From the IMG/VR virus record IMGVR_UViG_3300037193_000639, positions 11,557 to 75,556 of that record: a stretch of 64,000 nucleotides of DNA; one strand, given 5' to 3'. The stretch is from a virus. Of the stretch, positions 543-58,982 are shown in pieces. Within the stretch, counting starts at the first letter, position 1; every line of letters starts with the position of its first letter. The position numbers and the translations under genes are program-made. The notes under the pieces are model-generated. The model saw only the letters and a list, made by a program, of their open reading frames with translations, was not told the DNA's origin and did no database searches.

Positions 543-2286
543 ATGAGCAAACGAATTTACGGCCCCTGTAGTGAACGTCAACGTCTATTTCTAATGGACA
601 CAACAACAGACGTAATTTTGCTTGGTGGTAAACAATCTGCCTCCAAGGGTAAAAAACAACTCTCTAATTGCTGGAAAATCTCGATGAGACAATCAGCAGC
701 GAAGGTTCTCAATGATGAGAACAACGTTCAACGACTAGCCGAAAGGCGTACACCTAAGCGGGTGGAAACGGGAGTCTCCTTGACAGGATGAAGATATAGT
801 CTGAACTGCATGGCGACATGCAGCAGCTTTGCAAAAGCGGGGTAGTAGTAGCGATACTACCTGAACATATTTGGGCGCTGGAGGAGGCAAATCATTCACC
901 TGTCTTACAAAAAACCTAGACGGCTTAGACGATCCATATTTCCGCTGCACTATCTTTCGTCGCACATACCCAGAGCTTAAACGTCAGGGTGGTTTGATTG
1001 ACGAAAGCAAGCAAGTATACAGAGATTTTGGTGGTGTCTACAAATCACAGGCAATGAAGTGGATTTTCCCAAGTGGCGCAGAAGTTTCGTTTTCTGCTAT
1101 CTCTTGTGACGATGATCTAGGCTCTTGGCAAGGCTCACAGTTGGTTCGTGCACTAGTGGACGAAGCTGCAGATAAGTGGACAGAGAAGCAGGTTTTGTTT
1201 CTGTTGTCTCGTTTGCGGTCAGCACATTCTAAAATTCATCCTCAACTAATTTTGACATGTAACCCAGACATTAATTCGTTCTTGAAGTCTTGGGTGGATT
1301 TCTGTTTAGATCCAGACACAGGGGTTCCTGTCGAGGGGACAGAAAATCGGGTTAGGTGGTTCATTGTTATTGACAATAAGGCACACTGGGCTGATTCCCC
1401 TGAAGAGGTGTTTGAGAAGTATGGTAAGCCGCGCAACATGATTTATGCACACGGGCTTACTGAGGAAGAAATGAATAGTTACTCTCCTCAAGAACGCCTC
1501 CGCTTGTGCATGCCTAAGTCTTTCCGGTTTCTGCCTACCGGAGTGTTTGACAATCCTTACCTGCTCCCGCCAAGGAACAATAGCTATCTGCCAAACTTGC
1601 TGGCACAGCCGTATGTCAACCAGCTTAAGTACCTCCATGGATCATGGACGGCTAAGGAAGCTGCAGGAGGCTACTTCAAACGTGAATGGACTCCTATCGT
1701 AGATTATCCTCCTGAGAATCCTATCTCCCGTGTTCGCTCTTGGGACTTTGCAGCCTCTGAAGAAAGCGTTGCCAATCCCAACCCTGACTGGACTGCAGGG
1801 GTGAAGATGTCACGGGATAAGTATGGAATCTATTACATTGAACACGTCGAACGCTTCCGTGCAAGAACTGACAAGGTATTGAAAGAGGTTATTGACGTAG
1901 CTAAGTCGGATGGTTTGGACGAATGTGGTGTGACCATCCCTAAAGACCCCGGTGCAGCAGGAGCTACAGCAAATGCCTTCTATATTAGGACGCTTGCAGA
2001 AGCAGGGGTAGCAGCTAAATCATGTACGATTTCTGGGCACAGTGGCAAGGTAACACGTTTCAAGCCATTTGCTGCATTAGCAGAGAGCGGTTCTGTTAGG
2101 GTGGTTAGAGGTGATTGGAATGATGCTTTCTTTAATGAGCTAGAAGAATTCGATGGCTCAAGGGGTAAGAAGGACGACCAGGTGGATGCTGTGTCGGATG
2201 CTTTTGCTACTTTGGCAAGACAGTTGCAGATGCCGACGATTGTGATCCCTTCTCTGGAACAACCCTCCCCAATTCCAACAGTTTAA
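543..2286 (+). CDS. terL: Terminase large subunit, two exons (543-629 and 874-2286)
   Basis: Joining the exons restores Walker A VILLGG|GAGGGKS. Also Walker B ALVDEA, motif III LTCNP, and nuclease residues WDFAAS and DDQVDA. Confidence 0.93.
630..873 (+). ncRNA. Group I self-splicing intron (IA2-like, no ORF, 244 nt) in terL
   Basis: 5' exon ends in U629 and pairs U.G with IGS GCCUCCAAG (P1). Core elements: P AAUUGCUGGAAA 666-677, Q AAUCAGCAG 691-699, R UUCAACGACUA 727-737, S AAGAUAUAGUC 791-801. P7 is GACUA/UAGUC; P7.1, P7.2, P8 and P9-9.2 hairpins are present; terminal G873. Confidence 0.95.
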
Positions 2287-2320
2287 AAATTGTCAAGACT
2301 TGACATTTTGAAATAACCTA

Positions 2321-2349
2321 TTGACAAATTACCTTCAGGAATGTATAAT
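2321..2349 (+). promoter_or_regulatory. Consensus sigma70 promoter upstream of portal
   Basis: TTGACA-17 nt-TATAAT. Confidence 0.8.
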
Positions 2350-2377
2350 AGTATTAAACATAAGGAGTAAATTCAAT

Positions 2378-3886
2378 ATGCCTGATGCGCAGAACACGCC
2401 GACAGGCGTAGAATCTGCTCTGCAGCCAGACAAAGACTCTGTAATCCCCCGAATCTCCCTCGGTGAGCAAGGAATAATTGGCCTTCGAATCCGCGCAAAG
2501 CAGATCGTAGAAGAAACCAACGCAGCCTTCCGCTATCCAAATTTCATCCGTACTGTAAACGAAATGCGCCACAACACCACTGTTGGCTCGGCTATGAACG
2601 TCTACAGAATGATGATGGGCAGGGTGAAGTGGGACGTAGAGCCTCCTGTCGGTGCAACAGAACAAGATAAAGCACGTACTGCTGCTGTCCGTACAATGAT
2701 GGATGACATGGAGCACTCGTGGGCCTCGTTCATCGAAAGTGTTATACCCTCCCTCGAATATGGTTTTGCAATCAACGAGAAAGTATTTCGTAGACGTTTG
2801 AAGCGAAACGGCTCTAAATACAATGACGGTATCGTTGGTTTGCGTAAACTTCCAACTCGAAACCAAGATACGATTTGTGGGTGGGGGTTTTCAGAAGATG
2901 GTTCAGATCTCCTCCATGTGGAGCAGTCTCTACAAAACCTAGAAAATTCTTATAGGTTCCAAAACCGCACGAACGTCAACGGTAAGATAGAAATCCCACG
3001 AAGCAAGTTTCTTCTATTTTCTGCTTCCGCCAATAAAGGCAATCCAGAAGGTAACTCGATATACAAGAACGTATATCTCGCTTACAAAAGGCTTGAGCTT
3101 CTACAAGACCAAGAACTCCTTGGAATTGCGAAGGACGTACAAGGGATTTTGAAAATCGAAATCCCTGTCAAGTATCTTGACCCTAACGCATCAGCAGAAG
3201 ATCAAGCTGTTAAGGAAGCGTTTCAAAAGATCATCGATAACTACAATGCCGGAACCCAGAGAGGTTTGCTGCTGCCGAGAATTCTAGATGAAAAGGGTAT
3301 TTCGTTATTTGATTACTCTCTCATGGAAAGCAAGGGCGGTGCCAAATACGATACCGAATCAGTTATCCGCAGACTCCAACAAGACATCCTCTCAGCACTA
3401 AACGTTGACATCTTGAAAATGGGTGCAGAGGGCACTGGCAGTTTCTCTCTCGCTCAGACCAAAACATCTGTTTTAGCTCTCGCTATTGATTATCGTCTGC
3501 GAGAAATCCAAGAAGTTCTCAACTCCGATTTGATGCGCTCAATCTTTGAGTTGAATGGTTGGGGTTGTGAAAACCTTCCTAAATTCGTTTACGCAGATGT
3601 TGAAGAGATCGATTTGGAAACATTTAGTAAGGCTTGCCAGCGCCTGTTCTCCACAAGTGCAATTGAAGTGGATCGTAAAGTCATGAATAGGATTCGTGAA
3701 GCTATTGGCGTTGACGCGAAGCCTGATGATGAAGAGGTGGATGTAGATAACCTCCCCGGAAATCTAGTAGGAATGTCTTCTCGATCTGGCGATGGGATGG
3801 AAGTCGGTACGACTGGGAACGGTACATCTAAGGGTGGGGGTTCTGGTCAAAACTCTTCAGACAATAATTCAGATAATGCAGCATAA
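2378..3886 (+). CDS. Portal protein
   Basis: Follows terL; about 500 aa. YGFAINEKVF, GNPEGNSI and GSFSLA motifs resemble DUF935-type portals. Start reassigned to ATG 2378 after RBS AAGGAG. Confidence 0.85.
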   Translation: MPDAQNTPTGVESALQPDKDSVIPRISLGEQGIIGLRIRAKQIVEETNAAFRYPNFIRTVNEMRHNTTVGSAMNVYRMMMGRVKWDVEPPVGATEQDKARTAAVRTMMDDMEHSWASFIESVIPSLEYGFAINEKVFRRRLKRNGSKYNDGIVGLRKLPTRNQDTICGWGFSEDGSDLLHVEQSLQNLENSYRFQNRTNVNGKIEIPRSKFLLFSASANKGNPEGNSIYKNVYLAYKRLELLQDQELLGIAKDVQGILKIEIPVKYLDPNASAEDQAVKEAFQKIIDNYNAGTQRGLLLPRILDEKGISLFDYSLMESKGGAKYDTESVIRRLQQDILSALNVDILKMGAEGTGSFSLAQTKTSVLALAIDYRLREIQEVLNSDLMRSIFELNGWGCENLPKFVYADVEEIDLETFSKACQRLFSTSAIEVDRKVMNRIREAIGVDAKPDDEEVDVDNLPGNLVGMSSRSGDGMEVGTTGNGTSKGGGSGQNSSDNNSDNAA

Positions 3887-3901
3887 ATAAGGAGGCTGAA
3901 C

Positions 3902-4765
3902 ATGCCAAAATCGCACAGTCTCTTTAGGCTGTATTCAAAAATTCACAATGTCCCCCATCTTATCACACCAGAAGCTTTCACCGTAATTCTAGACTATCTT
4001 GATAGCAGAAATCAAGCTGGAATCATCAAAGCAGATATCTACGAAGAAGACTATGAATCTCTGGAAGAAGACCAACCGAAAATGTACAAGGATGGTCTTG
4101 GTGTTCTTCGTGTTGATGGCTCTTTGACCTACAAGCCAGTGATGACAATGTGTGGCTCTGTCGGAACAAGCTACACACAACTCGTAGAGCAAGTTGAAGA
4201 GATGGCTGAAGCAGGTGTTCGGACAATTGTCATGGAAGTAACTTCCGGTGGTGGTGAAGCATCTCACGTTTTCCAAGCTTGTGAAGACATCCGTGCAATC
4301 TGTGATGAACATAACATCAAAATGATTGGCTACGCAGATACCGTTGCAGCTAGTGCGGCTTATGCGTTGATTTGCGTCTGCGATGAAGTGATTGCAAATC
4401 CGTCAGCTTCGCTAGGCTCTATTGGCTGTGTTGTAGCCCTTCTAGATGCTTCGGAAGCAATGAAGAAAGAAGGATACAGACGAATCTTCGTAACTTCAGG
4501 CGAGAACAAAGTGCCCTTCAATGAAGACGGATTCTCCTTCAAAAAAGAATTTCTAGAAGAGATTCAAGAAGACGTTGACAAGCTTAATGTGGAATTCTCA
4601 GAGCATGTAAGCCGTTATACCGGTCTTTCCGCAGACACGATCATGGGTTTTGAAGCTAAGTGCTTCAATGCAGACGAGGCGTTAGAACGTGGCCTGTGCA
4701 ACAAGATTATGACTAACCGAGAGTTTGCTGCTTATGTGGCTGACTTGCATAAGAGGAGCATTTAA
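3902..4765 (+). CDS. Prohead maturation protease, S49 family
   Basis: SGGGEA, AASAAYALICVCDEV and GSIGCV motifs; position after portal. Confidence 0.9.
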   Translation: MPKSHSLFRLYSKIHNVPHLITPEAFTVILDYLDSRNQAGIIKADIYEEDYESLEEDQPKMYKDGLGVLRVDGSLTYKPVMTMCGSVGTSYTQLVEQVEEMAEAGVRTIVMEVTSGGGEASHVFQACEDIRAICDEHNIKMIGYADTVAASAAYALICVCDEVIANPSASLGSIGCVVALLDASEAMKKEGYRRIFVTSGENKVPFNEDGFSFKKEFLEEIQEDVDKLNVEFSEHVSRYTGLSADTIMGFEAKCFNADEALERGLCNKIMTNREFAAYVADLHKRSI

Positions 4766-5334
4766 TGCTTAAGGAAAACCAAATGTTGAGGAGCATTACA
4801 AAGCTCTTCACTGGTGAGAAAGAAAGTGAAGAAATGAAAAAAGATGAGGCGCAAGCTTCTGAAACTAGTCTGACAATCACTGGCCAAGTGGTTGCAGATC
4901 TCACAGCAGGGATGGAAAAACTGCAAGCGGACTTTGAGGCATTTAAGACAGAAGCTAACGCATTGATTGCTCAAGCAGATGCGGAAAAAGCTGAACTGAA
5001 AAAACAGGTTGAAACACTCGTTGTAGAAAAAGCCGCAATGATTGCCGATGCTGCTGCTAAAAAACTTGCAACTCGCAAAGCGAAAGTTGAGGCAGCAATT
5101 GGCGAGAATGAACGTGCAGCAAAACTGCTTACTGCTACTGAACAAATGGAAGACGCAGCGTTTGAAGCCATTGTAGCTGCTCTTGAAACTTCAATTGATG
5201 CTGAAGCCAAATCGCAAATGTTTACTGAAGCCGGTGTCGCTGCTTCTGCCGATGTGACGAAAGTTGCTGAAGGTTCTGGCACCAAAAAACTGCAGGCTCT
5301 TATTGAGGCTGAACTTGGAATTACTGCGCAATAA
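4765..5334 (+). CDS. Putative capsid scaffolding protein
   Basis: Ala/Glu/Lys-rich coiled coil between protease and decoration genes. Confidence 0.6.
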   Translation: MLKENQMLRSITKLFTGEKESEEMKKDEAQASETSLTITGQVVADLTAGMEKLQADFEAFKTEANALIAQADAEKAELKKQVETLVVEKAAMIADAAAKKLATRKAKVEAAIGENERAAKLLTATEQMEDAAFEAIVAALETSIDAEAKSQMFTEAGVAASADVTKVAEGSGTKKLQALIEAELGITAQ

Positions 5335-5371
5335 GTAGCGCACATTCAATTAATATTTTAAAGGAAATCAA

Positions 5372-6073
5372 ATGACTGTTGTTGCTACAGATACCCGCCG
5401 GTATTCGAACCTAGTCAAGCGCGAAATGTGGGCCGAATGGGGCTACTGCAAGAAGCTTGTCACCGTATATCAAGGTGCTGCTACTCTCGCTATTGGTGCC
5501 GTTCTCGGCAAATTTATTGCTTCTCCTACTGGCACTGCTTCCGCTGCTGCTGGTAACACTGGTAATGGAGCTATGGGTGCTGTTACCGTCACTTCTAACA
5601 AAAATCTTCAACTCGGCACTTACAAAGTAACGATTGTTAAGGCTGCTGCAAACGCTGGTGACTTCGTTGTTACTGATCCTGCTGGTGATGTTGCAGGTTT
5701 TGGTACGGTTGCCGTCGCGTACAGCCAAGGCGGTATTGCTTTCACCCTTGCTGACGGTGCTACTGACTTTGTGGTTGGTGACTCTTTCAATATCGTTGTA
5801 GCTGGCACTGAGAAATACAAGCTTGTCGAAGCTACTGCAACTGATGGGACTGAGGTAGCTAGTGTTGTGGTGGTTGGTAATGCAACCGGCAACGCTGTAT
5901 CTACTGCTGTCACTGCAAACACTGATACGTCGTTCCTCGTGCTATATCGCGGCCCTTGCGCTGTTGCTGATACCGCTCTCTCGTACGGCACTTCTGTCAA
6001 CACCGATGACGAGAAAACTGCACTGTACAACCAGCTTCGTGCTGTTGGTATTGACGTACTGACTCAGATCTAA
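5372..6073 (+). CDS. Head decoration protein (gpD-like) with inserted beta-rich domain
   Basis: Directly before MCP; LAIGAVLGK N-terminal and LRAVGIDV C-terminal motifs. Confidence 0.75.
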   Translation: MTVVATDTRRYSNLVKREMWAEWGYCKKLVTVYQGAATLAIGAVLGKFIASPTGTASAAAGNTGNGAMGAVTVTSNKNLQLGTYKVTIVKAAANAGDFVVTDPAGDVAGFGTVAVAYSQGGIAFTLADGATDFVVGDSFNIVVAGTEKYKLVEATATDGTEVASVVVVGNATGNAVSTAVTANTDTSFLVLYRGPCAVADTALSYGTSVNTDDEKTALYNQLRAVGIDVLTQI

Positions 6074-6091
6074 TTTTAAAGGAAACAAATA

Positions 6092-7123
6092 ATGCTAGTT
6101 CGTAGCCCAACTAATAATTTTGAACTTGTCGATCTGACAGATGCAGTACGCAACCTGCCGATTCAGTATGGTACGTTCAACCAACTTGGCATCTTCACTG
6201 AAGAGGGTGTTGCAAGCGATGCAGTGATGTTTGAAGAGCTGACTCAAGATGGTGCACTGATTGTTGACCGCGTTCGTGGTGAAAAGAATCTGGTGTCGAA
6301 AGATGGTACTCGCAAATTGCATACCTTTGCAGTTCCGCATTTCCCGCTGGATGACTATATCTCTCCGAAGGATCTGCAGAACGTCTCTGCTTACGAGAAG
6401 CTTGACGAAGCAGAGAAACTCGAACTTGTCCGTGCACGGAAGATTGCACGCCTGCGTCAGAACCATGACTGGACTCTGAACAAGGCTCGTGCTCAGGCCC
6501 TGTTCTCTGGTACGGCTTATGCCCCTAACGGCACTGTGACCCAAGACTGGAATACCGAGTTTAGCGTAACTCGTACTGAAGTGGACTTCCTGTTTGGTAC
6601 TTCCACCACTGAAGTTCTGTCGAAGATTGAACTGGTTATTCAGGCAGTGCATGACGGCATGGCTGGCGAAGCTGGCTTCACTGGTATCGTTGCCCCGGTA
6701 TCTACTGGCTTCTTCAACAAGCTGATCACTCACGCTTCTGTGCAGAACGCCTACAAGTATTTCACCTCGATCCAGTCGCAAGATCCGATGCGTACTCGCC
6801 TTGCAGGTAACAATTCCCCGATGCCTAACGGTCGTGAGTTCTTCTTCGGTGGTATCACCTTCCGTGAAATTCGGGACTCTTATAGCGGCACCAGCATTGT
6901 AACTGCAAACGAAGGTATTGCAGTTCCGACTGGCTCTGATAAGTTTAAAACGTTCTTCAGCCCATGCGAAAGGTTCGGATTGGTAAACACGCTTGGAGAA
7001 AAAATGTATTTGTTCGAGCAAGCTGCATCTAATGGGACGAAGATCGAATTGGAGTCCGAATCTAACCATATCTCGGCTTTGCTCCGTCCTCAAGCTGTGA
7101 TTCGGTTGTACACAAGCAACTAA
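6092..7123 (+). CDS. Major capsid protein (lambda gpE-like)
   Basis: 343 aa; VPHFPLDDYISPKDLQ and terminal ESESN....LRPQAVI motifs; strongly biased codon usage. Confidence 0.9.
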   Translation: MLVRSPTNNFELVDLTDAVRNLPIQYGTFNQLGIFTEEGVASDAVMFEELTQDGALIVDRVRGEKNLVSKDGTRKLHTFAVPHFPLDDYISPKDLQNVSAYEKLDEAEKLELVRARKIARLRQNHDWTLNKARAQALFSGTAYAPNGTVTQDWNTEFSVTRTEVDFLFGTSTTEVLSKIELVIQAVHDGMAGEAGFTGIVAPVSTGFFNKLITHASVQNAYKYFTSIQSQDPMRTRLAGNNSPMPNGREFFFGGITFREIRDSYSGTSIVTANEGIAVPTGSDKFKTFFSPCERFGLVNTLGEKMYLFEQAASNGTKIELESESNHISALLRPQAVIRLYTSN

Positions 7124-7158
7124 TTAGAAATTTTGTCAGATAATTACTGACCAATTTC

Positions 7159-7201
7159 TTGATCAAAAGCAACTGTCTATGTTATAATGCGCAGTTGCTT
7201 T
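7159..7201 (+). promoter_or_regulatory. Extended -10 promoter enclosed in an inverted repeat, upstream of endonuclease gene
   Basis: TTGATC...TGtTATAAT (-10 at 7183-7188), flanked by AAAGCAACTG and CAGTTGCTTT. Confidence 0.6.
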
Positions 7202-7203
7202 GA

Positions 7204-10231: not shown

Positions 10232-10256
10232 TTAATACAATTTTAAAGGAATAAAC

Positions 10257-10764: not shown

Positions 10765-11709
10765 ATGGCAAGAAAACGAACCAAAGAAGATTTTTTGATT
10801 GAAGCAAGAGAAATTCATGGCGATAAGTATAATTACGACAACGTGGATTTCACATTTAGTAATACAAAAGTAGAGATAGTTTGTAACAAGGGGCATGGCA
10901 GTTTCTGGCAAACCCCATCGAATCATATAATTTGTAAGGCTGGTTGTCCCGCTTGTGGAGGCTGTGAACGTCCAACAACTGAAAAATTTATCCGGCAAGC
11001 CAAAGAAAAGCATGGTGATAAATACGACTACAGCAAATCAGTGTACGTTAAGGCGCACCAAAAATTGCTAGTGACTTGTCCAAAAGAAGGACATGGAGAT
11101 TGGGAAGTAACCCCAGACGCGCACAAGCGCGGAAATGGTTGCCCGAAATGTGGCGATGAAAGAACTGCGGCATCCCACAGATTAACACAGGAAGAGTTCA
11201 TTCAAAAAGCTACAGATGTCCATGGCACAAAGTATGACTACAGTAAAGTAGAATACAAGTGCGACACAGTGAAAGTTTTAATTGGATGCCCAGAACACGG
11301 GGACTTTCCATGTACTCCATCTAACCATAAGAAAGGTCGGGGTTGCCCTAAGTGTGCCAAGAACGGATACAAACGAAGCCAACCCGGAACCTTCTACATC
11401 TTAACCTGTGGCAATCTCACAAAGATTGGTATCACAAACCGTAAAGTACAAGACCGCATTAGGTCTATCAACAAAAGCTCTGGCAAGAAATTTAAAGAGC
11501 GTTTTAGCATCTTTCTAACAGACGGCGAAGTTCCATACCAAATGGAGCAAATTCTTCTACAAGAACTTCGAAGCAAGTACAAACCTGTTGATGAAATATT
11601 CGATGGCTCAACTGAATGTTTTCAGGATGTTGATAACGCCTTACTTATCGTCAAAGCTGTAACACTCTTCGGAGATCAAAAACTTCTCAGTAATGAGAAC
11701 AAGCCGTAA
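10765..11709 (+). CDS. Free-standing endonuclease-like protein, paralog of 7204-8172
   Basis: Same three Zn repeats (HGDKY.Y...GCPKC) plus FYILTC..TKIGITN...DGSTECF. Confidence 0.75.
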   Translation: MARKRTKEDFLIEAREIHGDKYNYDNVDFTFSNTKVEIVCNKGHGSFWQTPSNHIICKAGCPACGGCERPTTEKFIRQAKEKHGDKYDYSKSVYVKAHQKLLVTCPKEGHGDWEVTPDAHKRGNGCPKCGDERTAASHRLTQEEFIQKATDVHGTKYDYSKVEYKCDTVKVLIGCPEHGDFPCTPSNHKKGRGCPKCAKNGYKRSQPGTFYILTCGNLTKIGITNRKVQDRIRSINKSSGKKFKERFSIFLTDGEVPYQMEQILLQELRSKYKPVDEIFDGSTECFQDVDNALLIVKAVTLFGDQKLLSNENKP

Positions 11710-29089: not shown

Positions 29090-29123
29090 TAAACCCTTTC
29101 TTGTAATTATAGCCTACCAATTC

Positions 29124-30211
29124 TCAAGAATGAGAATTGCCATTACCACGAATCATATCATGCACTGCCTGCAACTGCATAATCTGCTGCACAGTCCATT
29201 CATAATCTTCTTCAACAGGTTCTTCGTTATTTTCGTCCTCTACAACACCCTCAGCCTCCAGCAAGGCTTTGTAGTTGATTGTATTGCCCATCATGCTTGC
29301 AAGCTCTCTTGTGAGAGATGGATCTGTGTATGCTGCTGCACACATTCGATCAGTAATGTCTGACACGCAGGAGTTAAGGAGCTTCCTGCTTGTACATACG
29401 CTGCCGATAGCCTGAAACCCAATTGCAACCTTACCTTGCATGTCCCTATGTTTTGATGGGACATACTCGATTTCTTTAGCAGGGTCAAATCCGCATTGCC
29501 ACAACACTTCATGCATCAGTGCGTCATTTTCGGGAAACAGCATCTCCACTTCATTCAGATGTTTTAGCTCATCCGCAAGCTTTAGATCACGGAAGGAGAT
29601 AACCTTCATTCGAAGCCTCCTTTGGCTTTCTTGTTTAATTGATTCACCACTTCCTTCATCTCCTCCAACCGCACCTCATAGCACACTGGATTACTGCAAA
29701 TAGGGAAGGATGTCTTATACCGAGTTGCAGGTTCTCCGCATACAAGGCACTGGTCCTCTTCATTTTCTTCAATCATTTGTAGATTTGCTTCAGTAATGCT
29801 TTTAACAATTGCCAACATGTCTTCCTCAGAAGTTGCTATATATCGGACAGACTTCCCTTTGACAGTGCCTGATACGATATAGCCGTTCAATACTTTCTCT
29901 ATGTTTATCAATTTGTCTCCTTACACAATCTGTGGCAGCACCATACCTTGTCGCTCCAACCATTCCAACATCTCTGGGATTTCCTTGTACTCATATGCAT
30001 GATTGTAGTCATACTCTTCGTCACCAATCTTGAATCCGTCCATATCAAAGATTGCACAAATGGTGTGTTTTCCATCTTTCTCTGACAAGTCAATGATGGT
30101 TGCGAACTGACGGGTTTTGATAAATACTACAGCTCCACGCTGTCCATCAGTCAGGAGGACAAGACTGATTGGGAGGGTTTCTCCGATAGCTGTTTGAAGT
30201 TGGTATGGCAT
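29124..30211 (-). CDS. Three hypothetical genes (29124-29609, 29606-29911, 29921-30211)
   Basis: Tightly packed co-directional ORFs; the middle one has a CxxC...CxxxxC Zn motif. Confidence 0.6.
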
Positions 30212-37322: not shown

Positions 37323-37392
37323 TTCTTTTCCTTTTAAACAAATAAATTGTGCATTACATGCACGTTAAACTTCTCATTGCTGAGAATTACTG

Positions 37393-38932
37393 TTAGCCTT
37401 TATTGGCCTTATCTTTTGCTGTCTTTCCGGGACGTGCTTTCCCAGTCAGTTTAATACAATTCTGGTGTGTGCGAGGGAATTTACCCATCGCTTTCTTATC
37501 TGCTTCAGTCATGTAATCTGCACGTTGTTTGCTCATCTTTTCTCCTTATTTGTTCTCATGGTTGAGAATTGTTTTAATCACTTCCCAAGAACACCAAACC
37601 TTCGTCTGGGTATTCTGTGTGATATGCATACAACCCCTCTGGTCCTTGCAGGTTAGGGTAGTTTTCACTTCTTACGAGCACGTAAGTATGTTCTTCTGGA
37701 TTGTCTTCGCACTCAAAGCATTCTACAAGCTTTTTAGCTTGCTTAAATGTAATTACCATTTTACTCCTTTTAGTGGCACATGTCAACAACTTTGTTGCTA
37801 ATCATCCACACGAACATAGCGGGTGCTCATTGTCTCAAAGTAGCCACCCTCTCCTACATACATGATACGCGAAACCAAGGCAGGCTCTCCATTAACAACC
37901 AATGAGGATGTATGATCAATAGGAACAACATACGTCCGTTGACCTACTACCAAATTTGTTACATAGTCAATGTGCTTGTATTGCACGATAGGTTTGTATT
38001 TGACTTCTTCAGTCATTGCACGGCTCCACATTCAGGGCACTTCCAAGCCCCGTTTTCGTAATCTTCGTCTCCGAACTGACCAGCTTCAAGTCCGTACTCT
38101 TCGCAATCTTCAGGGTCAAACCCCGGAATATCGTCGTCCGATTGTTCAAACCAAAACGTCATTGTAATAATCCTCCATCATCACTGCCAACAAATCACCT
38201 TCAATCTTCCTGTACTGGCTCTCAGACAGCTTATTCAACACACTTACACCTCCATGTGTAATATCGAGGATATCAACCTCTGGAGGTTCTGTAGGACTGT
38301 CCCAAACCATATAGCAGCGCCCCGGCCAGAAGAAAAAGAAAGCTTCAGCTTCTACAGCTTCATCTGTCTCAGGATGATTAATCGTTATCGGGAAGTTGTT
38401 GTGACGACTCATCTACAGATCACCGTAATCGTCACAGAACCACCAACCCTCATCCCAATCTTCGTTTTCTTGTGTGCCGACTGGGGAAGGGTTCTCGTCT
38501 TGAGAATAGCCCATCATTGCAGCTAGTTCACCTTCTGCCATTGCTTTGGATCTATTCACTTCTTTCCAAAACTTTTCTACAACTTTCTTATAGACTTCGT
38601 AGAGAATCGTCAATTGTGTTGGAAGCCATTGCATATCACACCTTCTTCCAAACAGTTGTCTCCACAACTTTAGTAATACGCTTCACCTCATACACATCAG
38701 GCTCATTGTAATACCAGTCTGTGTGGTAACTTCCAGACCGGCTTTCAGATAGGCAGAAGAAGTGGTCTTTATACTTGAAATACGTATCCTTGTATTGGTA
38801 CTTATGCTCTTGTGTCCAATCATCTTCCTCTACAATCTCAATACCTTCAATGTCTTCAAGGTCGTTGTAGGAATCTCCATACTTGCTGATTTCTAGCAGT
38901 GCTACAATCTCTTCGATTAGTTCTTTGCTCAT
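37393..38932 (-). CDS. Cluster of small hypothetical genes (37393-37536, 37574-37759, 37798-38016, 38146-38412, 38413-38634, 38636-38932)
   Basis: Packed co-directional ORFs, several with AGGAG RBS; 37393-37536 (47 aa, basic) is not in the ORF track. Confidence 0.55.
37758..37786 (-). promoter_or_regulatory. sigma70 promoter
   Basis: TTGACA-17-TAAAAT on - strand. Confidence 0.65.
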
Positions 38933-44701: not shown

Positions 44702-44709
44702 GTTTGTTC

Positions 44710-44979
44710 TTAAGGTTGAGAACTTGTGCTGATGATTCCACTCGATTGCTCCTTGAACTCCCGAATTTCTTTTTGGTATCGAATGTACTCCGCTGCTTCT
44801 TGCTCTGTCCGAAAAGCCTTGATTGGTGTTACAACATTCCGTGTGAATGTGTAGCCAGTGGCAGACACATCCGACATTTCTCCTGCATACCACACCTCAA
44901 ATTTGTTCCAAATCTTTGTTGGGTTGTTGATTACAGCATAAGAGTCTTTATTCAATTGTTCTCTCCCTTGGTTGATCAA
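44710..44979 (-). CDS. Hypothetical protein
   Basis: ORF track; co-directional. Confidence 0.5.
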   Translation of the reverse strand: MINQGREQLNKDSYAVINNPTKIWNKFEVWYAGEMSDVSATGYTFTRNVVTPIKAFRTEQEAAEYIRYQKEIREFKEQSSGIISTSSQP

Positions 44980-47582: not shown

Positions 47583-47583
47583 G

Positions 47584-49291: not shown

Positions 49292-49301
49292 GATATTCTC
49301 C

Positions 49302-50139: not shown

Positions 50140-50199
50140 GTTAGTTTCCTTCCTACTGCATAGCAGCTATATTAATAAAATCGTCTTGCTGAATATCAA

Positions 50200-51289: not shown

Positions 51290-51307
51290 ACTTACCTTCT
51301 ACTGTAA

Positions 51308-51888
51308 TCACTCCTCACCTCCAAACCGTTTATGCACTTTAATCTTGAACTCTTTCTGTTTCCCTTCCATCTTTTGCGCATAGTACGTGCATATTAGAGC
51401 CAACAATGGTACAGAAACAGGAGATGTCAGAAGCACCAATACCCCCACAGCAACATAAATGATTGCCCACAGGAATTCCTTGCCGTGTTCGTACAGCTCG
51501 CTCCAAAGATAGCAGTCACGCAGGTTCTTTAAAAGAAATATTTCAGTAGCGACCTCTTTTAAGTGTTTTATGTACAGATTCACTCTGCCACCTCTACAAT
51601 CTCATAAATACCATCACCGCCAAAAGACGAAGCAGCAAAGTTCCGTTCACCAACATCATCTAGGAAATACTCTTCTCCGTCTTCATCAAGCCCCTCGATC
51701 ACGTAAATCTTGCCGAGGGTTACATCTTCAAGTTGGAAGCGCTCCTTAGCACCTGTAAATCGTATTTTTGTGTCAATGTTCAGTGTCTCAATTCCCTCGA
51801 TACTCATCTTGTCTCTCCTTGGTAAGCTGTACAGGTTAATTGGTGGCAGCTCTAGTGTGGGCCAATCGATCACTTTACGACCTCTCAT
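51308..51888 (-). CDS. Two hypothetical genes (membrane protein 51308-51583; 51580-51888)
   Basis: ORF track. Confidence 0.5.
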
Positions 51889-52291
51889 AGCAAAACATGT
51901 GCTCCTCCAACCGCATGCAACTCATTTTCTTTGCCCACTTTGGCTTCACAATGACATGGTGGAACCATTTTACATTCTCATTCATGAGAACTACTCCAAC
52001 ACCCTCCATCCGCTTCAATAAATCTTTCATTTCGACATTATATTTCAAAATTGGCTTCTTGTCAAACCATGAAAACTGCCCCGGCTGTGCAATTACTTGA
52101 CAGACACTCTTCCCTGTTGCTTTTACGCGATTCAATATGACATCCATCACAGCCCTCTTGCCTACGTCGCTTTGTGTGTTGGCTTCGTAGTAAATTGCAG
52201 ACACCATGCAACGTTTTTCTGACAGAGCATCCTTTGCAACAGCTTGAAAGGGAATAATGGAGAGGGCTAGGATGAGAAGACGCTTTAACAT
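51875..52291 (-). CDS. SleB-like cell wall hydrolase (Hydrolase_2)
   Basis: Signal peptide; AIYYEA...V..VILNRV...VC.V..Q..QFSW; H.F. Confidence 0.85.
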   Translation of the reverse strand: MLKRLLILALSIIPFQAVAKDALSEKRCMVSAIYYEANTQSDVGKRAVMDVILNRVKATGKSVCQVIAQPGQFSWFDKKPILKYNVEMKDLLKRMEGVGVVLMNENVKWFHHVIVKPKWAKKMSCMRLEEHMFCYERS

Positions 52292-52448
52292 CGGGCTTCC
52301 TCGATCGGATAGTGCACTTCTTCGTAATCATATACGAGATTAAACAAAGCACCGAAACGATTGAACTCAGGTGATCCTGTTTCTGGTGGGTTGTCGAAGT
52401 ATACTGACAGGTCTTTCAATGCAACCTTGTACTCTTCCTCAGTAGTAA

Positions 52449-55375
52449 TCATTTTGAACCCTCCACAACAGCATCCACAGCCTCTTCAAAATGCTGCGCA
52501 ACAGAGCCTTTCATGATACTCACACCTACAGGGACTGGAATTCTTTCAATGTGGAATATTGGCCTCCAACCTCCCGAATACATGCCACCAACACGCAGCT
52601 TCACAGTTTCCCATCGTTCCGCTTGTTTGGCAATGTGTTCAATGTACTCAGCAAGCTCGTAGTAAACATCTTTCTTATGTGCATCTTTTAAAATTGCTAA
52701 AGCCTCTTCTTTAGTTATCATACAACCTCCACAGCATTCCGCTGGTTTCTCTTACACCCTTCACACTCTGTATCTACAGTATCCCTACTGTATTGGCAAT
52801 CCGTAGTCATCCTGTTTGGAGCATCCCTAAATACTGGAATGCGTGTGTAGCTCCCATCAACATAAACACATTTCCACCCTGTTTGTACTTTTAAGGATGA
52901 TTTGAAGTCATCTCTGTTGTAACATCCGTAAGTCATTCCATCCTTCCCGCTAGTTTTCCGTGTAAATAATCAATGTATTCTAGTTGTGACATTACTACAC
53001 CATTCACTGTGTAGGTGATCGTGTCTTCAGCTGCTCCAACGATCTGCGTATCTAGCTCCCACCTCTCCCCTCTTTTGACTCGCTCTGCTAGTTCCTTTGG
53101 AGTGATGGTTTCGCCGTAAGGAGCTACTACCTGCTGCGCCTTGGCCTGCGGAGGGGGCGTCAAGTTCGCGCAGCGCCTGGATTTCCTGAATAGCAGCGCC
53201 GATTGATGCAGCGTGTCTCCCGGCGCTTCGCGGTGCCACGCTGCATAGAGCATGTCCAGAGTGTCGCCGTAGCTGCTACCCTGCGGCATCTCTAACTGCG
53301 GTGGCGCGGCGTTAAGCGCCTGATCAATTGATTCGTATCCAAGGTTGCGAGCCTTGACGAGCCAACGATCAAGCGGGCACTTCGGCTTCGCCTCTTGCTG
53401 CCCAGCCTCACTAGATAGCGCGGGGGCAGCGAATACCAATGGCTCAATTCGCGTTATCAAGGCTTCGTTGACGTGCTGCGGTCCTGTTCCTTTTAGAACA
53501 GGTATGCAGTCTTCGTGCATACTGCCAACGCGGCGGAAATAAACCATTTCCGCTACCGGCTCCTGCCTTACCTGCTGCGCTGAAGAGATGGCGGATTCGA
53601 ACTGCGCTAGTAGGTCTTTTGCTGCTTCCTCACTGACCATGTGGCCTGATTCAAAGCCGCAGCCAATAAGTGTTCTCGCAATTTCCAGCGTGTCGGTGTG
53701 GTTGGTCATATCGAGCCTCACTTTCCGTACCACATGTATGCAGGACGCACGGCGCAGATTGCGGCCCACTCACCGGCAATGTGTCCCCAATCCTCGACAT
53801 ACACACGCCAGCCGAGGTCAGTATCAACATCGCCGCCGTCATATCGTTTGTCCCATCCCTCACACTTCATAGATGTCGAGTCTTCCGATTCCAGCCACCT
53901 GTGAATCATCGGCGCGAGTTCGGCCGCCCCCATAGGAGCTGGGAGTTTTTGCGCTCCATTGGAATCAGTCCAGAACAGAACGAAGCCTTTTTCAGGAATG
54001 AAGCGCCAGCACTTAGCAGCATTGAATCCACTTTGCAAAAAGGCCAGATCCAGCACCTTCGTCAAGGCATCAAGGCCGGTGCCGTTCACGTTGAAAATTC
54101 TGTTATCCATCACCCCTCCTTCTGTTCAATCTCGCCATTCGGCAGCGGTGCGGCAATAGGCCAAGAATCACCGCAGTCAATGCATGTAACCTGATTGCCA
54201 GATACAGACAGATCGAAGTGCGCATCAGGATGGTTCTTGCATTCCAGTGTGTTCGGCAGCGGTTGTCCCTGAGGGGAGGGTGCGGCGGCAATAGCGTCGT
54301 ATTGCTCTTCTGTGATAGCGCCAACGGCGGCGAGCAAGTCTTCCCACTGCCAGTCTTCCTCGGCCATAACGGACTGCATGGCGCTGTTCGGAATCATCGG
54401 CACCGCTACCCAACCATCAGGCACCTTCTGCTGCGCTGCGATGGAGAGCCGGGATTCAATGGCGCGGGCACCAAGAAATGCCTCTTTCGCTGAAACTGTG
54501 TGTTCTGCACGACTACCAAGCCAGCGATTGAATAACTGCTCATCGCTCAACCCTGCGGACACCGGCGCAAGATTTTTTCGCGGCGCTACTTCTTTCCCAT
54601 CGTTATAGCCAGCGTCATACCACTCTTGCTTAACGCCCCACGGTATTTCATCCTCCCGTTTGTTCCGGTCGGCGGCGATGGCGGAAAGAGCGTAGTCAAC
54701 TCGGGCATTAGCGTAGGCTTCCATTTGGTCAGCGGTGAAAGCTCGCAACGCCTGTGTGCCAACAACAATGACGCCTTCAGGCTCCGGCAGTTCAGGCTCA
54801 AGCTGGGTGGGTTGTGTGTACAACATGCCGCCCTCCGTGCAAACCACAGGCGCACGCTGACCTGCAGCAATCAAGTCTGCATACAACTCTTGTGCTGTCC
54901 GATATACACACTTGTCATTCCTAATAACAGCGGTCATCTCCTCTGTCAGCTTAACTGGCATAGTCACAAAATCTTTATTCATTTCTCTTCGCCTCCTTCA
55001 ACACTTCCTGAGCCTTCACAGTAACATCTAAGATACTTTTCAATATACCTGCATTCCCTTTACTGATAGGGATGTGCATATAAGCATCTTGCAGCACAGC
55101 TTCCATTTCTTTGATGAGGTCTAGTAGTTCTTTGTTTGTCATTCTCAGCTCCCTTTAAATACCTTGCACCGAAAGCATTCCACATAAGAGTCATCTTCTT
55201 CAAATTCAAAGCAAAGAAGCCCAGTAACGGGATGTATTACCTCAGCACGCTTAACTGTGTTGATCTGCTGTCCAGATTTGAATGGTTTAGGTGTAGCCTT
55301 GCCTCTCTTCTTCCACACCTTGCAACCAATCATACTTTTATAACGCTTAATATCTTCTTCAGTTTCTTTTTTCAT
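52449..55375 (-). CDS. Accessory hypothetical genes (52449-52721, 52718-52936, 52933-53709, 53718-54113, 54110-54982, 55145-55375)
   Basis: Packed ORFs; the central ones are GC-rich with prophage-type QEPVA/VPDGW..VP motifs. Confidence 0.55.
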
Positions 55376-55394
55376 GTTCAGCTCCCTAAACAAA

Positions 55395-55431
55395 ACAAGC
55401 CCAGTGTACTCTCATACAAAGGGCTTGTCAA
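55395..55431 (-). promoter_or_regulatory. sigma70 promoter embedded in a terminator-like hairpin
   Basis: TTGACA-17-TACACT on - strand; arms ACAAGCCC/GGGCTTGT followed by TTTG. Confidence 0.7.
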
Positions 55432-55444
55432 GAAGGATTTACAT

Positions 55445-56320
55445 TTAAGCTGCAAGAGGCTCTTCTCTCTCGCTCTTCTCAGCAATCTCAAGCGTTTCTG
55501 CGAATTGCAGAAGCTCAAGGCTGATACGCATGAGTTCATCCTTCGAAGCTTCAGGAGAAACCATCACCTGAACATGCTCAGAAGAAAATGTGAGCACGTC
55601 TGGGCTGTCTGTCTTTCTGCGCTTCTGTTCCCCACGCTCTGCACGTCCTTGTTCCACAGCCCTACCAATCAGCTCTGCAACAGCGGATGTCTGTTGGGCC
55701 TCTTCAGGCTTTCCTTTAGAGGTTTTCTCAGGCTGCTTGCCTTCCTCTGCCTTTGGCTGTTCAGTAGCCTTGGGAGCTTCCTTCGGAGGCGTAGGCTGCT
55801 TCACAGGCTTGCCAACAAGAGCAAGAACGCTGTTGATGCCCTTGAGGTTATACTGCTCAAGGTGCTGAACCAAAGCATTGATTGCAGCCATTTCTGCTCG
55901 GTTCTCGATAAGCTGAGAAACCTTCTCTTGCCCAATCCAATCAAAAAGCTCTGCATTTGCATCTATCCGCCTACGAACTGTCTTATAATCTGAACCATAC
56001 TGCGTCTCACAGTCATAGCCAGCTTGAGTATAGATCTTCTGCAGGGCTTGCTTGCTCTCACGAGAAATACCATCAGTTTCCGTAAAAAGAATCAAACCTG
56101 TAGCCAGCTCAAGTTGCAACGAGTAGCGGTACGAAATAGCTGCATTCGTAATAGCGCTAATCATTGTCTGAGTAGACACTGCAATACGCTTCTCCTGTGG
56201 TTTCTCAGAGGAGATTTTCTCCAGATTCTTCAGAGCACCATCAATTATTGCTGGAGCAGGCTGTGCCTCAATAGGCTTTGCAGGGCTGCGACGGGTTTTG
56301 CCGGTATTCTTGATGTTCAT
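55445..56320 (-). CDS. Hypothetical protein with its own promoter and terminator
   Basis: RBS AAGGAG, ATG 56320; optimised codons; Pro/Glu/Lys linker. Confidence 0.75.
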   Translation of the reverse strand: MNIKNTGKTRRSPAKPIEAQPAPAIIDGALKNLEKISSEKPQEKRIAVSTQTMISAITNAAISYRYSLQLELATGLILFTETDGISRESKQALQKIYTQAGYDCETQYGSDYKTVRRRIDANAELFDWIGQEKVSQLIENRAEMAAINALVQHLEQYNLKGINSVLALVGKPVKQPTPPKEAPKATEQPKAEEGKQPEKTSKGKPEEAQQTSAVAELIGRAVEQGRAERGEQKRRKTDSPDVLTFSSEHVQVMVSPEASKDELMRISLELLQFAETLEIAEKSEREEPLAA

Positions 56321-56385
56321 GTCATTCTCCTTTAAAAGTTTGGCTTTGCACAATTGCGTCTGCCATGTAAAACATCTTAAAGGAG

Positions 56386-56414
56386 AGTATAGCCTTGTCC
56401 TTGCGAAAAATCAA
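56386..56414 (-). promoter_or_regulatory. sigma70 promoter
   Basis: TTGATT-17-TATACT. Confidence 0.65.
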
Positions 56415-56417
56415 GCT

Positions 56418-56657
56418 TTATTTAGAATTCCTATCAGAATTCAATTTTGCTCCCCTCTTTTCACGCGCTGTTGCAATAATTCCATCTGCTTCAGGCCAAC
56501 TTCCATTTATGATTGCCTGAGAATAATCGAGGTCCATCTCTACATGATTTAAGTAATCAAACAATTCTTTGAAAAATTGTTGCCGATCTTCTGGTAAGCG
56601 CTCAATCTCCAGCGTTACCTTCCTGTTTCTAGTACACAAGTCGCAGTTACACATCAA
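56418..56657 (-). CDS. Hypothetical protein
   Basis: ORF track; N-terminal CxCxxC. Confidence 0.5.
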   Translation of the reverse strand: MMCNCDLCTRNRKVTLEIERLPEDRQQFFKELFDYLNHVEMDLDYSQAIINGSWPEADGIIATAREKRGAKLNSDRNSK

Positions 56658-57298
56658 AATCCCCTCGCAGCATTAAATTGCTCCCAAACACGTTCACGGC
56701 TATCTGCTTCTTCCCCGTGTCTTTCTGTGTATTCTTCACCTTGCTCGTTTAACTGTTGAATCATTTTCTTCCTATACTCTATAGCCATCTCTTTGGCAGC
56801 ATCTCCGTATTTCCTTACCGAAAACGCTTTTGATTTAGCAACACCATCTTGCCTCCAAGTTGCCACCCAGTATTCGCCACGCCAGCCATCAGGCCATTCT
56901 GTCTCTCTAAAGTAAACCCCTGTCACACCTGAAGAGTTATTTGAATACTGTCTCTGGTTCTGAGCATTACCTTTATCTGTAGTGCAACGTAGATTTGTCT
57001 TCACATTGTTTAAACCGTTGCCGTCTTTGTGGTCAACTACGTCCGTTGTACTTAAAGCATTTCCAAGTAGCACCCACACGATACGATGAACTAGAAAATG
57101 GGAACCGCAAACTCTCACCCTCCAGTAACTTCCATCTAACCCTCCTGCAACATCTCCCACTTCTCCAGACTTATACCCTGAACCTTTCCCTTTGCGCCTT
57201 TCTATTTTCCAACGCAAGCAGCTAGGAGAGGTTTCGTCATATTCAAGCAACGTATCTAGCACCTCTTTTGGGGGTATATCTTTAAACACACGCCTCAC
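56654..57298 (-). CDS. HNH homing endonuclease with AP2-like C-terminus
   Basis: YDETSPSCLRW; HRIVW...VDHKDGN..NN...NLR; YTERHG. Confidence 0.88.
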   Translation of the reverse strand: MRRVFKDIPPKEVLDTLLEYDETSPSCLRWKIERRKGKGSGYKSGEVGDVAGGLDGSYWRVRVCGSHFLVHRIVWVLLGNALSTTDVVDHKDGNGLNNVKTNLRCTTDKGNAQNQRQYSNNSSGVTGVYFRETEWPDGWRGEYWVATWRQDGVAKSKAFSVRKYGDAAKEMAIEYRKKMIQQLNEQGEEYTERHGEEADSRERVWEQFNAARGF

Positions 57299-58191
57299 AA
57301 ATCGTCCTCATCACGCCAGCCTTGGAAAATCGGGAATCGGTAACTGTCCTTCATGCCTACAGCGAAATACTTGAACTTCGCCAGCTTGCCGAGATACTTA
57401 TCTTTGTTAGCCCAAACTTCTACACGTCCTGCATCATCAAAACCGCTACCCATTGTGAAACGAATTCCGTTACATTCACAGATTAGCGCACCAAGCGTGT
57501 TCGCACCAATAAGACCGTCTTTAGAAGATGAGCGTTCGGAGTACCCGAGTTCATTAGTCTTCTTCTCGTTGGTGTTTGTCATCTTCTCTTCGAAACCGAT
57601 GACAACTGCTTCAGCGTCTTCAAAGCGTTTTACTTTGCCGATGATACCTTCCTTTGCAGTAGAGCGACCTTGCTTGTATCGGCCATTAGGGTCACGAACC
57701 ATCACACCTTCATATCCTGCATCAAGAGCCTCTGCTTCAAATTTCAGCAAATCTTCTTCGGAGAAGATAGTATGAATAGCAACCGAAACAACTTGAGGTT
57801 GATTTTCAGAAGTCTTCAAGACATGTGTGAAGAACCTTTTATCATATTGTTCGTCGGAGTGTACGTAATCAAACACAGCAAATGTAATTTGACGTTCATC
57901 AAACTCTGGTTTCAAGTCAGTTGACATGCATGCTTGTGTTGTTAGATTAAACACGTTTGGAGCGTTCCAGTCCCCGTAAAGAAGTTCGCCGTCTAGGCCG
58001 TTCAGTTCAGACCGTCCAAAAAGTTTTTGAACTGCCTTAGATCGGATTGGCTTCATCGAGCGGCTGTACACTACGCCGTCAATCACAATCGCACGAATGC
58101 CATCAAGCTTTACTGATACCATCTGAGGGTATTTCAGCTTGCTTGTGTCATCTACTGTGTATGCCAAGAGTGGCTTAAAATTTGTTGTCAT
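57295..58191 (-). CDS. ATP-dependent DNA ligase
   Basis: KLDGIR, LDGEL, VFD, EGVMVR, KVK; terminal RFP.F...R. Confidence 0.93.
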   Translation of the reverse strand: MTTNFKPLLAYTVDDTSKLKYPQMVSVKLDGIRAIVIDGVVYSRSMKPIRSKAVQKLFGRSELNGLDGELLYGDWNAPNVFNLTTQACMSTDLKPEFDERQITFAVFDYVHSDEQYDKRFFTHVLKTSENQPQVVSVAIHTIFSEEDLLKFEAEALDAGYEGVMVRDPNGRYKQGRSTAKEGIIGKVKRFEDAEAVVIGFEEKMTNTNEKKTNELGYSERSSSKDGLIGANTLGALICECNGIRFTMGSGFDDAGRVEVWANKDKYLGKLAKFKYFAVGMKDSYRFPIFQGWRDEDDL

Positions 58192-58830
58192 TTATTCTCC
58201 AATAATTCTGTCAAAATATTCTAGTACATCACGCAACATTGCTTTCCGCCCTTTCAGCCACAAAACGTGGTCGCTGAGTGAATGCGTGTCCATACTTGAA
58301 TAGTGAGTTTGAAGTTCTGCTCGAACCTCTTTCAAATCGTACAAACCTTCGCGCTCGTGGATGTTAATACTCAAACCATCCATCATCATGCCTCTTAAAA
58401 TATTCTTCCAACTGCTTCAAAACAAACTGAGCCTCTTCAGGCATTCTATATAGACTTGTATCTTTATCCACCTTCTTGATGTACTTCCAATCAAACCTGA
58501 ACACCTTCTTCGGCTTCCACCATTGTTTGAAGTGCAAAATTACCTTAGTGTAATACCCGTTGACACCTTCTACAACTTTTGTTTCGTAATAATCCACTTG
58601 GCCTAATAGACTTTTTGATAATATCATTCTTCTTCTTTCTCCATCATTTCTCTGTAGATCGCTTTACTTGCTTGCAGAGCGTTCCAAGATTCCCTATATT
58701 CACCTTCATAATACATTGTCCAGTGGTGGTATTGTCCACCATTCCTTACAGCCGTACGCCAATACTTTTTATTCATCCTACAACGTCTGGCGAGGTTCAC
58801 AAGAATAGCCAATGCAATGTCTTTATTCAT
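58192..58830 (-). CDS. Three small hypothetical genes
   Basis: 58192-58389, 58364-58627, 58624-58830. Confidence 0.5.
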
Positions 58831-58857
58831 CCTAATCTCCTCAATAAAATTTCACTC

Positions 58858-58982
58858 ATTGTATCCATTGAAAACCATTCCGTCAAGAATTATTTGTTCT
58901 TAACATTGAGAATTTAACACGTTGCGTCTTTACAAAATATTTCCACAACAATCTTGACAGGGCGAAATATTGAGAATAATCT
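58858..58982. promoter_or_regulatory. Divergent sigma70 promoter region
   Basis: - strand TTGACG-17-TACAAT (58886-58858); + strand TTGACA-17-TAATCT (58954-58982); gene orientation switches here. Confidence 0.75.

Follow-up and report, generated by a model that had tools for sequence, protein, structure and literature searches.

The gp71 stoperators of mycobacteriophage L5, the C1 operators of phage P1 and the conserved inverted repeats of phiC31 are sets of operators dispersed over phage genomes. Ogr of phage P2 and Delta of P4 are late activators that use a dyad, TGT-N12-ACA, centred near -55, while in N antitermination of phage lambda it is the loop of the nut boxB that is recognised and conserved. 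T4-type phages reportedly carry promoter-early stem-loop (PeSL) cassettes, said to have been described by Arbiol et al. in 2010. Here we describe a 16-bp palindrome, TTCTCA-N4-TGAGAA, which resembles each of these systems in part and recurs in an uncultured phage (G000; IMG/VR virus record IMGVR_UViG_3300037193_000639, 75,556 bp, estimated completeness 88%). The stretch analysed, called the window below, has 64,000 nucleotides and corresponds to record bases 11557-75556; positions are those of the window unless given as record positions. The palindrome is clearly real and, judging from its sequence and position, which are conserved across diverged phages, functional. We put at about one half the probability that it is the site of a phage-encoded, probably dimeric, sequence-specific factor which would bind double-stranded DNA at the borders of transcription units.

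Six perfect copies and two copies with one mismatch (TTCTTA-N4-TGAGAA) were recovered in the window, all at the places given in a preliminary description of this DNA (Table 1). The part of the record upstream of the window adds three perfect copies (record 6618, 10119 and 10793) and one coding near-copy (record 5891), which brings the whole record to nine perfect and three near copies. Dinucleotide shuffles of the window gave 0.01 perfect copies and 0.39 copies with at most one mismatch, and shuffles that kept both protein sequences and codon usage gave a mean of 0.1 perfect copies and a maximum of two, compared with the nine observed, so the enrichment claimed earlier holds against both backgrounds. 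No other palindrome in G000 with arms of 5-7 bp and a spacer of 0-12 bp reaches more than three copies, and other spacer lengths of the same palindrome stay at noise level, a spacer of three giving a single near-copy in the whole record against 12 copies with a spacer of four. Five copies continue as ...AGAACAA in the direction of the adjacent genes, as had been described. A literature search for the palindrome found no paper reporting the motif.

The genes of G000 were called with a simple codon-usage model, and selected genes were annotated. Seen against these genes, the copy at 706 lies within a group I intron and that at 51975 within the hydrolase gene; the copy at 11684 is found between two tail genes, where an HNH endonuclease gene has been inserted and has the copy in its last codons. 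The gene after 37371 had been taken to encode a single-stranded DNA-binding protein (SSB); it has no SSB match and falls into phrog_2544, of unknown function. A -10 box without a -35 box, as was noted near 29121, turned out not to be a general feature, and no fixed distance between site and -10 box was found among the copies.

No close DNA relatives of G000 were found among cultured phages. In its capsid and portal proteins G000 shares ~40-43% identity with Limnohabitans phage DC31, whose record places it in Pakpunavirus, and with Curvibacter and Pseudomonas phages. The cultured relatives (Limnohabitans DC31, Curvibacter P26059A, Pseudomonas 254) have at most one perfect copy each, which is chance level, and the motif is absent from ten uncultured relatives found via the DNA polymerase. 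No substitute palindrome was detected in the motif-free relatives, of which four were covered by full genomes and the others by their polymerase loci; repeats of GGCCGC-N4-GCGGCC in G004 were considered as such a substitute and rejected as ordinary terminators. A pattern scan of IMG/VR, together with searches in which the capsid protein or the 291-aa protein discussed below served as query, brought up eight related uncultured phages that carry the motif (G011, G012, G013, G017 and G022-G025), with 5-10 perfect copies each and a G+C content of 38-60%. Two further genomes, G014 and G016, were dismissed: each has two perfect copies, mid-coding, which were taken as chance matches of the scan. Pooling the carriers with G000 gives 58 perfect copies, of which 41 fall in non-coding DNA even though coding sequence makes up 82-93% of these genomes; eleven of the remainder lie at most 105 nt from the 3' end of a gene and six are mid-coding. 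Most copies in G011, G017 and G023 (IMG/VR 3300011994_000002, 3300037420_000470 and 3300037423_001433) share the whole 16-mer including its asymmetric spacer, TTCTCACATTTGAGAA in G011 and TTCTCATAAATGAGAA in G017 and G023, and in G011 most spacers point in the direction of transcription. The site may therefore be polar, or its copies may have spread recently. The G000 phage itself is present in further sequencing runs, including a plant metatranscriptome, as low-depth contigs.

The places of the copies are conserved as well. Synteny maps reveal at least eight places that two genomes have in common (Table 1), although protein identity between these phages is only 30-60% and their intergenic DNA cannot otherwise be aligned. 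G012 lacks the HNH gene between the two tail genes and still has a copy in the same intergenic place, which shows that the element predates the HNH insertion. Within the hydrolase gene, the copies of G000 and G012 stand in an identical reading frame, and the synonymous codons needed for the palindrome are kept in both. Coding copies in general (window 11684 and 51975, record 10119, G013 7125 and 12580, G012 3610) are always read as xTT CTC Axx xxT GAG AAx, a frame that encodes L-L/x-x-x-E-N/K; in the third reading frame the right arm provides a stop codon, TGA, or TAA in the TAAGAA variants. As to the copy at 706, an HNH endonuclease gene (record 11524-12096, window -32..540) ends just before the terminase large-subunit gene, terL, and in G013, the closest relative, terL is uninterrupted and a palindrome copy is found 38 nt upstream of its start.

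Table 1. Palindrome copies, associated features, places shared between genomes, and carrier genomes.
Feature	Position	Strand	Remarks
Palindrome copy	706..721		perfect, spacer ATGA; distal P6 hairpin of the group I intron in the terminase gene
Group I intron	579..823	+	in the terminase large-subunit gene, near its 5' end; full-length match to Rfam RF00028, 89.6 bits (gathering score 50), E 1.6e-21
Palindrome copy	11684..11699		perfect; last codons of the HNH endonuclease gene inserted between two tail genes
Palindrome copy	29121..29136		perfect; overlaps the TGA stop of a 161-aa gene, upstream of nrdB
Palindrome copy	37371..37386		perfect; 6 nt past the stop of a 47-aa open reading frame, which is flanked by this copy and that at 37553
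Palindrome copy	37553..37568		perfect; 5 nt past a stop codon and 6 nt before AAGGAG of the 47-aa open reading frame
Palindrome copy	44707..44722		one mismatch (TAAGAA in gene direction); holds the TAA stop of an 81-aa gene; ends 5 nt before ATG 44701
Palindrome copy	51975..51990		perfect; inside the cell-wall hydrolase gene, 100 nt from the gene end; 46 nt after a perfect TTGACA-17-TATAAT promoter
Palindrome copy	58897..58912		one mismatch; in the spacer between divergent early promoters, 10 nt upstream of the leftward -35 box
Sigma-70-type promoter TTGACG-17-TACAAT	58858..58886	-	adjoins the copy at 58897
Candidate binder	55445..56320	-	291 aa, early protein, no recognised fold; family co-occurs with the motif
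Second co-occurring gene	29606..29911	-	101 aa, CxxC...CxxxxC zinc ribbon; in all ~80-kb carriers
Shared place, between two tail genes	11684 and G012 50368
Shared place, inside hydrolase gene	G000 51975 and G012		100 nt from the gene end in both
Shared place, 3' end of 161-aa gene before nrdB	29121 and G012 26669
Shared place, 3' end of 68-aa helix-turn-helix gene	record 10119 and G013 7125
Shared place, after 123-aa gene	record 10793 and G011 29222
Shared place, before 65-aa gene	record 6618 and G013 10540
Shared place, syntenic divergent promoter spacer	58897 and G011 10023
Shared place, upstream of 353-aa gene	37553 and G012 21041
Carrier genome G011			partial; 6 perfect copies
Carrier genome G012			partial; 5 perfect copies
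Carrier genome G013			18 kb; 5 perfect copies
Carrier genome G017			complete; 10 perfect copies
Carrier genome G022			complete; 6 perfect copies
Carrier genome G023			complete; 5 perfect copies
Carrier genome G024			complete; 5 perfect and 15 one-mismatch copies
Carrier genome G025			complete; 7 perfect copies

When all ~128 G000 proteins were profiled across eight carriers (five complete, three partial) and six non-carriers, two proteins remained that occur in every carrier and in none of the non-carriers, encoded at 55445-56320 and 29606-29911. The first, of 291 aa, belongs to a family with further homologues. A locus search with the family alignment returned four known carriers and, in addition, five complete 50-kb phages (~60% G+C) with distant homologues. 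The 50-kb phages are without the 16-bp pattern, and each has instead 4-5 copies of TCTCAA-NN-TTGAGA (0 control matches), which has the same core, TCTCA-N4-TGAGA. This core gave no match in 502 kb of non-carrier genomes or in seven further polymerase loci, and the profile of the 291-aa family is absent from G001, G002, G018, G019 and the fragment G015, all positive controls being found. Family and core motif thus occur together in 13 of 13 genomes covering the region and are both absent from six of six others (19 genomes). The portal, polymerase and capsid gene trees are mosaic, with G000, G022 and G023 grouping with non-carriers in the polymerase tree and carriers and non-carriers interleaved in the capsid tree, which indicates that the association between motif and protein is not a simple clade effect. 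On the strength of this co-occurrence we consider the 291-aa protein the best candidate, either as the factor itself or as the subunit by which it would recognise DNA. In the AlphaFold2 model a disordered N-terminus is followed by a helical core (residues 58-185, pLDDT, the per-residue confidence score, >90), then by a disordered charged linker and, at the C-terminus, a small beta-beta-alpha unit.

Among the weak candidate binders named in the preliminary description, 55445-56320 is accordingly the one that tracks the motif in 19 genomes. The other two drop out: homologues of 25664-25960 are also encoded in the motif-free G003 and G004, and homologues of the exonuclease with a helix-turn-helix (HTH), 30970-31914, in the motif-free G001 and G004. 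It had been noted that no obvious repressor is encoded, and a Pfam scan of three non-structural gene sets returned no classical repressor; neither an integrase nor a CI-type repressor is among the Pfam matches of the three sets. The second co-occurring protein (29606-29911) has a CxxC-x13-CxxxxC pattern; for this protein Pfam (E up to 1) gave only one weak unrelated match and a profile search of PDB only generic zinc ribbons, and its profile was not detected in the 50-kb carriers. A 68-aa three-helix protein (record 10094-10300; L016:10097-10300:-) shows weak Sigma70_r4, HTH_23 and HTH_28 matches. Its gene is the first after a strong early promoter, and the 3' end of the gene holds a conserved copy. 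The family has 2-3 paralogues per genome in G002, G003 and G011, and the putative recognition helix ISRQRISQI is found only in G013 besides. As prime binder this protein was rejected, on account of its paralogues in the motif-free G002 and G003 and of its not being common to all carriers; a fold search with it was uninformative, and homologue and locus searches gave nothing or only G013.

The preliminary description had offered a DNA operator and an RNA hairpin as readings of the palindrome. Of the two, the operator fits the data better and the hairpin less well. Arm positions 2-3 (TC, mirrored by GA) never vary, while positions 1, 4, 5 and 6 do. A compensated palindromic double variant is found at one of 33 two-mismatch sites in carriers, and the numbers of two-mismatch sites are similar in non-carriers, i.e. 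background. In non-coding copies with a single internal change, nine changes break the pair on the transcribed strand and four give a G.U pair, approximately the split that unselected substitutions would give, so that the stem shows no sign of the selection for compensatory or G.U-preserving changes typical of a structured RNA. The spacer is ~73% A+T, although some carriers are 60% G+C. Of 59 non-coding copies, ten fall between divergently oriented genes and none between convergent genes, and in G000 and G011 the copy in the divergent spacer is located upstream of both -35 boxes; these copies should therefore not be transcribed from the promoters in question. A -35-like hexamer begins 5-26 nt after the site in 15 of 77 copies, compared with 5% of random intergenic positions (~fourfold), and -10-like hexamers pile up 30-50 nt after it. 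Placement downstream of a promoter was also considered and is not enriched (16 of 77 copies against a background of 19%). The start of the site is found within 5 nt after the upstream stop codon in 21% of copies against 5% of the background, as would follow in compact genomes if each promoter region began with the site. The 6-4-6 symmetry, half-sites about one helical turn apart and a free A+T-rich spacer are features of a dimeric operator, and one degenerate half-site appears to be tolerated, as one-mismatch copies occur in conserved non-coding places. Because of the invariant arms, the missing compensation, the A+T-rich spacers and the position in divergent spacers and before -35 boxes, we consider it more likely that a symmetric protein recognises duplex DNA than that an RNA hairpin is at work.

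A typical copy would then start a few bases from the upstream stop codon and lie 5-26 bp upstream of a sigma-70-type -35 box or in the spacer between divergent promoters; other copies directly precede a ribosome-binding site. Bound at 5-20 sites in each genome, the factor would govern how active nearby promoters of the host RNA polymerase are: it would activate them from roughly -50 to -70, or it would stop read-through coming from the unit upstream. Early, replication and some morphogenesis units would thus be co-ordinated by a single protein.

Several observations weigh against an operator bound by a phage-encoded factor. Site and -35 box are separated by anything from 5 to 26 nt, and the majority of copies lack an adjacent consensus promoter. 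The copy at 706 was modelled as the distal P6 hairpin of the group I intron, in about a dozen cases an AAGGAG-type ribosome-binding site follows the copy at 0-10 nt or the copy itself supplies the only GAG-type Shine-Dalgarno sequence, and copies follow directly after tRNA genes, one in G012 and one in G013. The last three points would suit equally well an RNA hairpin with a 6-bp stem and a 4-nt loop, by means of which a phage protein would repress translation of the following gene or steer the processing or stabilisation of transcripts where cistrons meet; the RNA binder could then be the 291-aa protein. We regard such a hairpin as rather unlikely, though deserving of serious attention. Many copies touch or overlap the upstream stop codon, the loop is conserved as well in G011, G017 and G023, and a language model gave a weak lead, and a lead only, to a cluster of T4 RegA-type translational repressors (score 0.87). 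Against the hairpin, no compensatory change is found in ~100 copies, single changes break pairs (nine) more often than they yield G.U (four), the stem has just two G-C pairs, the spacers are A+T-rich in G+C-rich genomes, and copies are situated upstream of both divergent promoters. In most genomes the stem is fixed and the loop free, which is the reverse of most RNA-protein hairpin sites. The same difference sets the palindrome apart from boxB, with which it has in common that a short hairpin-forming element can stand soon after early promoters or after the first small gene; unlike for boxB, the placement downstream of promoters is not enriched here.

Further points that burden the proposed phage factor concern the 291-aa protein itself. 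It has no Pfam or PHROG match and no recognisable DNA-binding domain, structure searches gave nothing significant (Foldseek E >0.5; VIA-align best Z 5.4), about one third of it is predicted to be disordered, and the incomplete contig G012 shows the C-terminal domain of the family only. The co-occurrence is confounded by shared ancestry, and the carriers may amount to two or three independent lineages. Moreover, three copies are found in G015, an unrelated 20-kb fragment (29% complete) in which no homologue of the 291-aa protein was detected. Its portal protein is ~35% identical to that of Ralstonia phage phiRSP, and its copies are in the structural genes, one at 61 nt from a gene end and the other two in non-coding DNA. 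The copies of G015 would be accommodated if a host protein, such as a global regulator or a nucleoid protein, binds the site and the co-occurring phage protein is a passenger of the lineage. The candidate's want of a DNA-binding fold would be in keeping with that, and so would the arms, which equal those of the SypG/VpsR-type enhancer TTCTCANNNTGMDWN of Vibrio sigma-54 promoters, as far as that enhancer is given in PMC10162802 (citing Ray et al. 2013). The two elements agree in the left arm, TTCTCA, and have a similar symmetry, but the half-sites of the SypG enhancer are 3 bases apart (TTCTCANNNTG...) as opposed to N4 here. SypG/VpsR sites also work only with sigma-54 promoters, whereas no NtrC-type protein is encoded here and no sigma-54 -24/-12 promoter (TGGCAC-N5-TTGC; at least 9 of 11 bases plus GG/GC) was found in G000, G011, G012, G013, G015, G001 or G002. 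A common host is unlikely for carriers that span 38-60% G+C, close mosaic relatives are without any copy, and in 19 genomes the presence of the motif matches that of the phage gene perfectly. A host factor thus seems improbable to us. A scan of bacterial genomes with NrdA for the host gave no match.

It has also to be considered that the copies are passive or structural elements, either weak terminator-like stem-loops of terminator-promoter cassettes spread by recombination, in the manner of PeSL, or leftovers of mobile elements. Their position right after a stop codon and before the next promoter is terminator-like, identical 16-mers recur in G011, G017 and G023, and G000 has about nine homing endonuclease genes, with two copies lying within mobile insertions. 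The resemblance to PeSL consists in repeated units of a stem-loop and a sigma-70 promoter between small early genes; the stem-loops there are effective terminators and the whole cassette is conserved, in contrast to 12 conserved bases without terminator features here. There is no U-tract, two of six stem pairs are G-C, and the flanks, which read CAA..., GT... or TTGG..., are unrelated. A G+C-rich stem followed by a U run, as in an intrinsic terminator, is not formed by the palindrome; conventional terminators are few in G000 and the terminator scan lists none that coincides with any copy. The place of the copy at 11684 is kept in G012 without the HNH gene, and adjacency to endonuclease genes is not consistent, for which reasons a link with homing endonucleases was rejected. 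Exact conservation across genomes of 38-60% G+C indicates that the sequence itself is recognised. All this makes a passive origin very improbable.

Returning to an operator read by a phage factor, the palindrome is like the L5, P1 and phiC31 sets in being a short sequence repeated 10-30 times per genome, mostly in short intergenic regions, without a single promoter geometry and with what would be one phage-encoded reader. In those systems the proteins are repressors with recognisable HTH domains, made by temperate phages, and the sites of L5 and P1 lack symmetry, whereas here the site is a perfect 6-4-6 palindrome, the candidate has no recognised fold, and the commonest place is upstream of the -35 box and not downstream of promoters. 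The combination that characterises L5-type stoperators, i.e. asymmetric sites in one orientation and a temperate repressor, is thus not found, and the resolvase is also present in non-carriers. With the P2/P4 activators the palindrome shares a dyad ~50-70 bp upstream of the start at several phage promoters of the host RNA polymerase and, in the 80-kb phages, a co-occurring zinc protein. Sequence and spacing are different, however, and the promoters here already have consensus -35 boxes. The zinc-ribbon protein encoded at 29606-29911 gave no Ogr_Delta match (Pfam, E up to 1), and its profile was not detected in the 50-kb carriers.

Some other features of these genomes were observed. Perfect TTGACA-17-TATAAT promoters of G000 are found at 2321-2349, between terL and the portal gene, and at 52037-52065, inside the cell-wall hydrolase coding sequence; consensus sigma-70 promoters also occur between structural genes of the relatives, often followed by a 5' hairpin. 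A tRNA-Ser(GCT) gene (record 10927-11016) lies 119 nt after the palindrome copy at record 10793. G000 encodes eight HNH or HNH-AP2 homing endonucleases in three paralogue groups (window 7216-8172, 10765-11709, 30214-30780, 45016-45618, 50843-51289 and 56654-57298; record 7431-8159 and 11524-12096), and a GIY-YIG domain match is present within 45000-64000, an unusually high load for a 76-kb genome. In G015 an HNH-AP2 gene, from the family to which those of G000 belong, interrupts the terminase large-subunit gene (L163:39-2201). The protein encoded at 38929-39639 has a PF18909 domain (dATP/dGTP diphosphohydrolase N-terminal, as in MazZ of Z-genome phages), and near it are encoded ThyX, a thymidylate-synthase-like 161-aa protein and a DNA methylase (33405-34370); together these hint at a modified nucleotide metabolism. 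The left arm (record 2321-8929) contains an RNA-repair-like set, common mainly to G013, with an RNA ligase domain, a calcineurin-like phosphoesterase, a cpYpsA SLOG protein, PhoH and a ClpP-like protease, and a protein with a HAD_SAK_2 domain is encoded within 45000-64000.

We tentatively propose, at somewhat less than even confidence, that the 291-aa protein founds a new family of phage transcription factors with a new DNA-binding fold, which would control 5-20 promoter-proximal sites through the core TCTCA-N4-TGAGA in at least two unrelated groups of tailed phages (~80 kb and ~50 kb) with a wide host range, and perhaps act also on an RNA hairpin at ribosome-binding sites, i.e. in dual control of DNA and RNA. 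Beyond a few model phages, regulation via the host RNA polymerase in lytic-looking phages is poorly understood. A 12-base signal and one orphan protein family, linked by comparative genomics across 14 uncultured genomes, provide a testable pair of regulator and site in a widespread group related to Pakpunavirus-type myoviruses. Should the binder be an ordinary repressor, the palindrome would be one more dispersed operator set. If the proposal is true, it would mean a new fold for the recognition of DNA or RNA, a compact and portable operator for synthetic control, and a way to read the borders of transcription units in metagenomic phage genomes.

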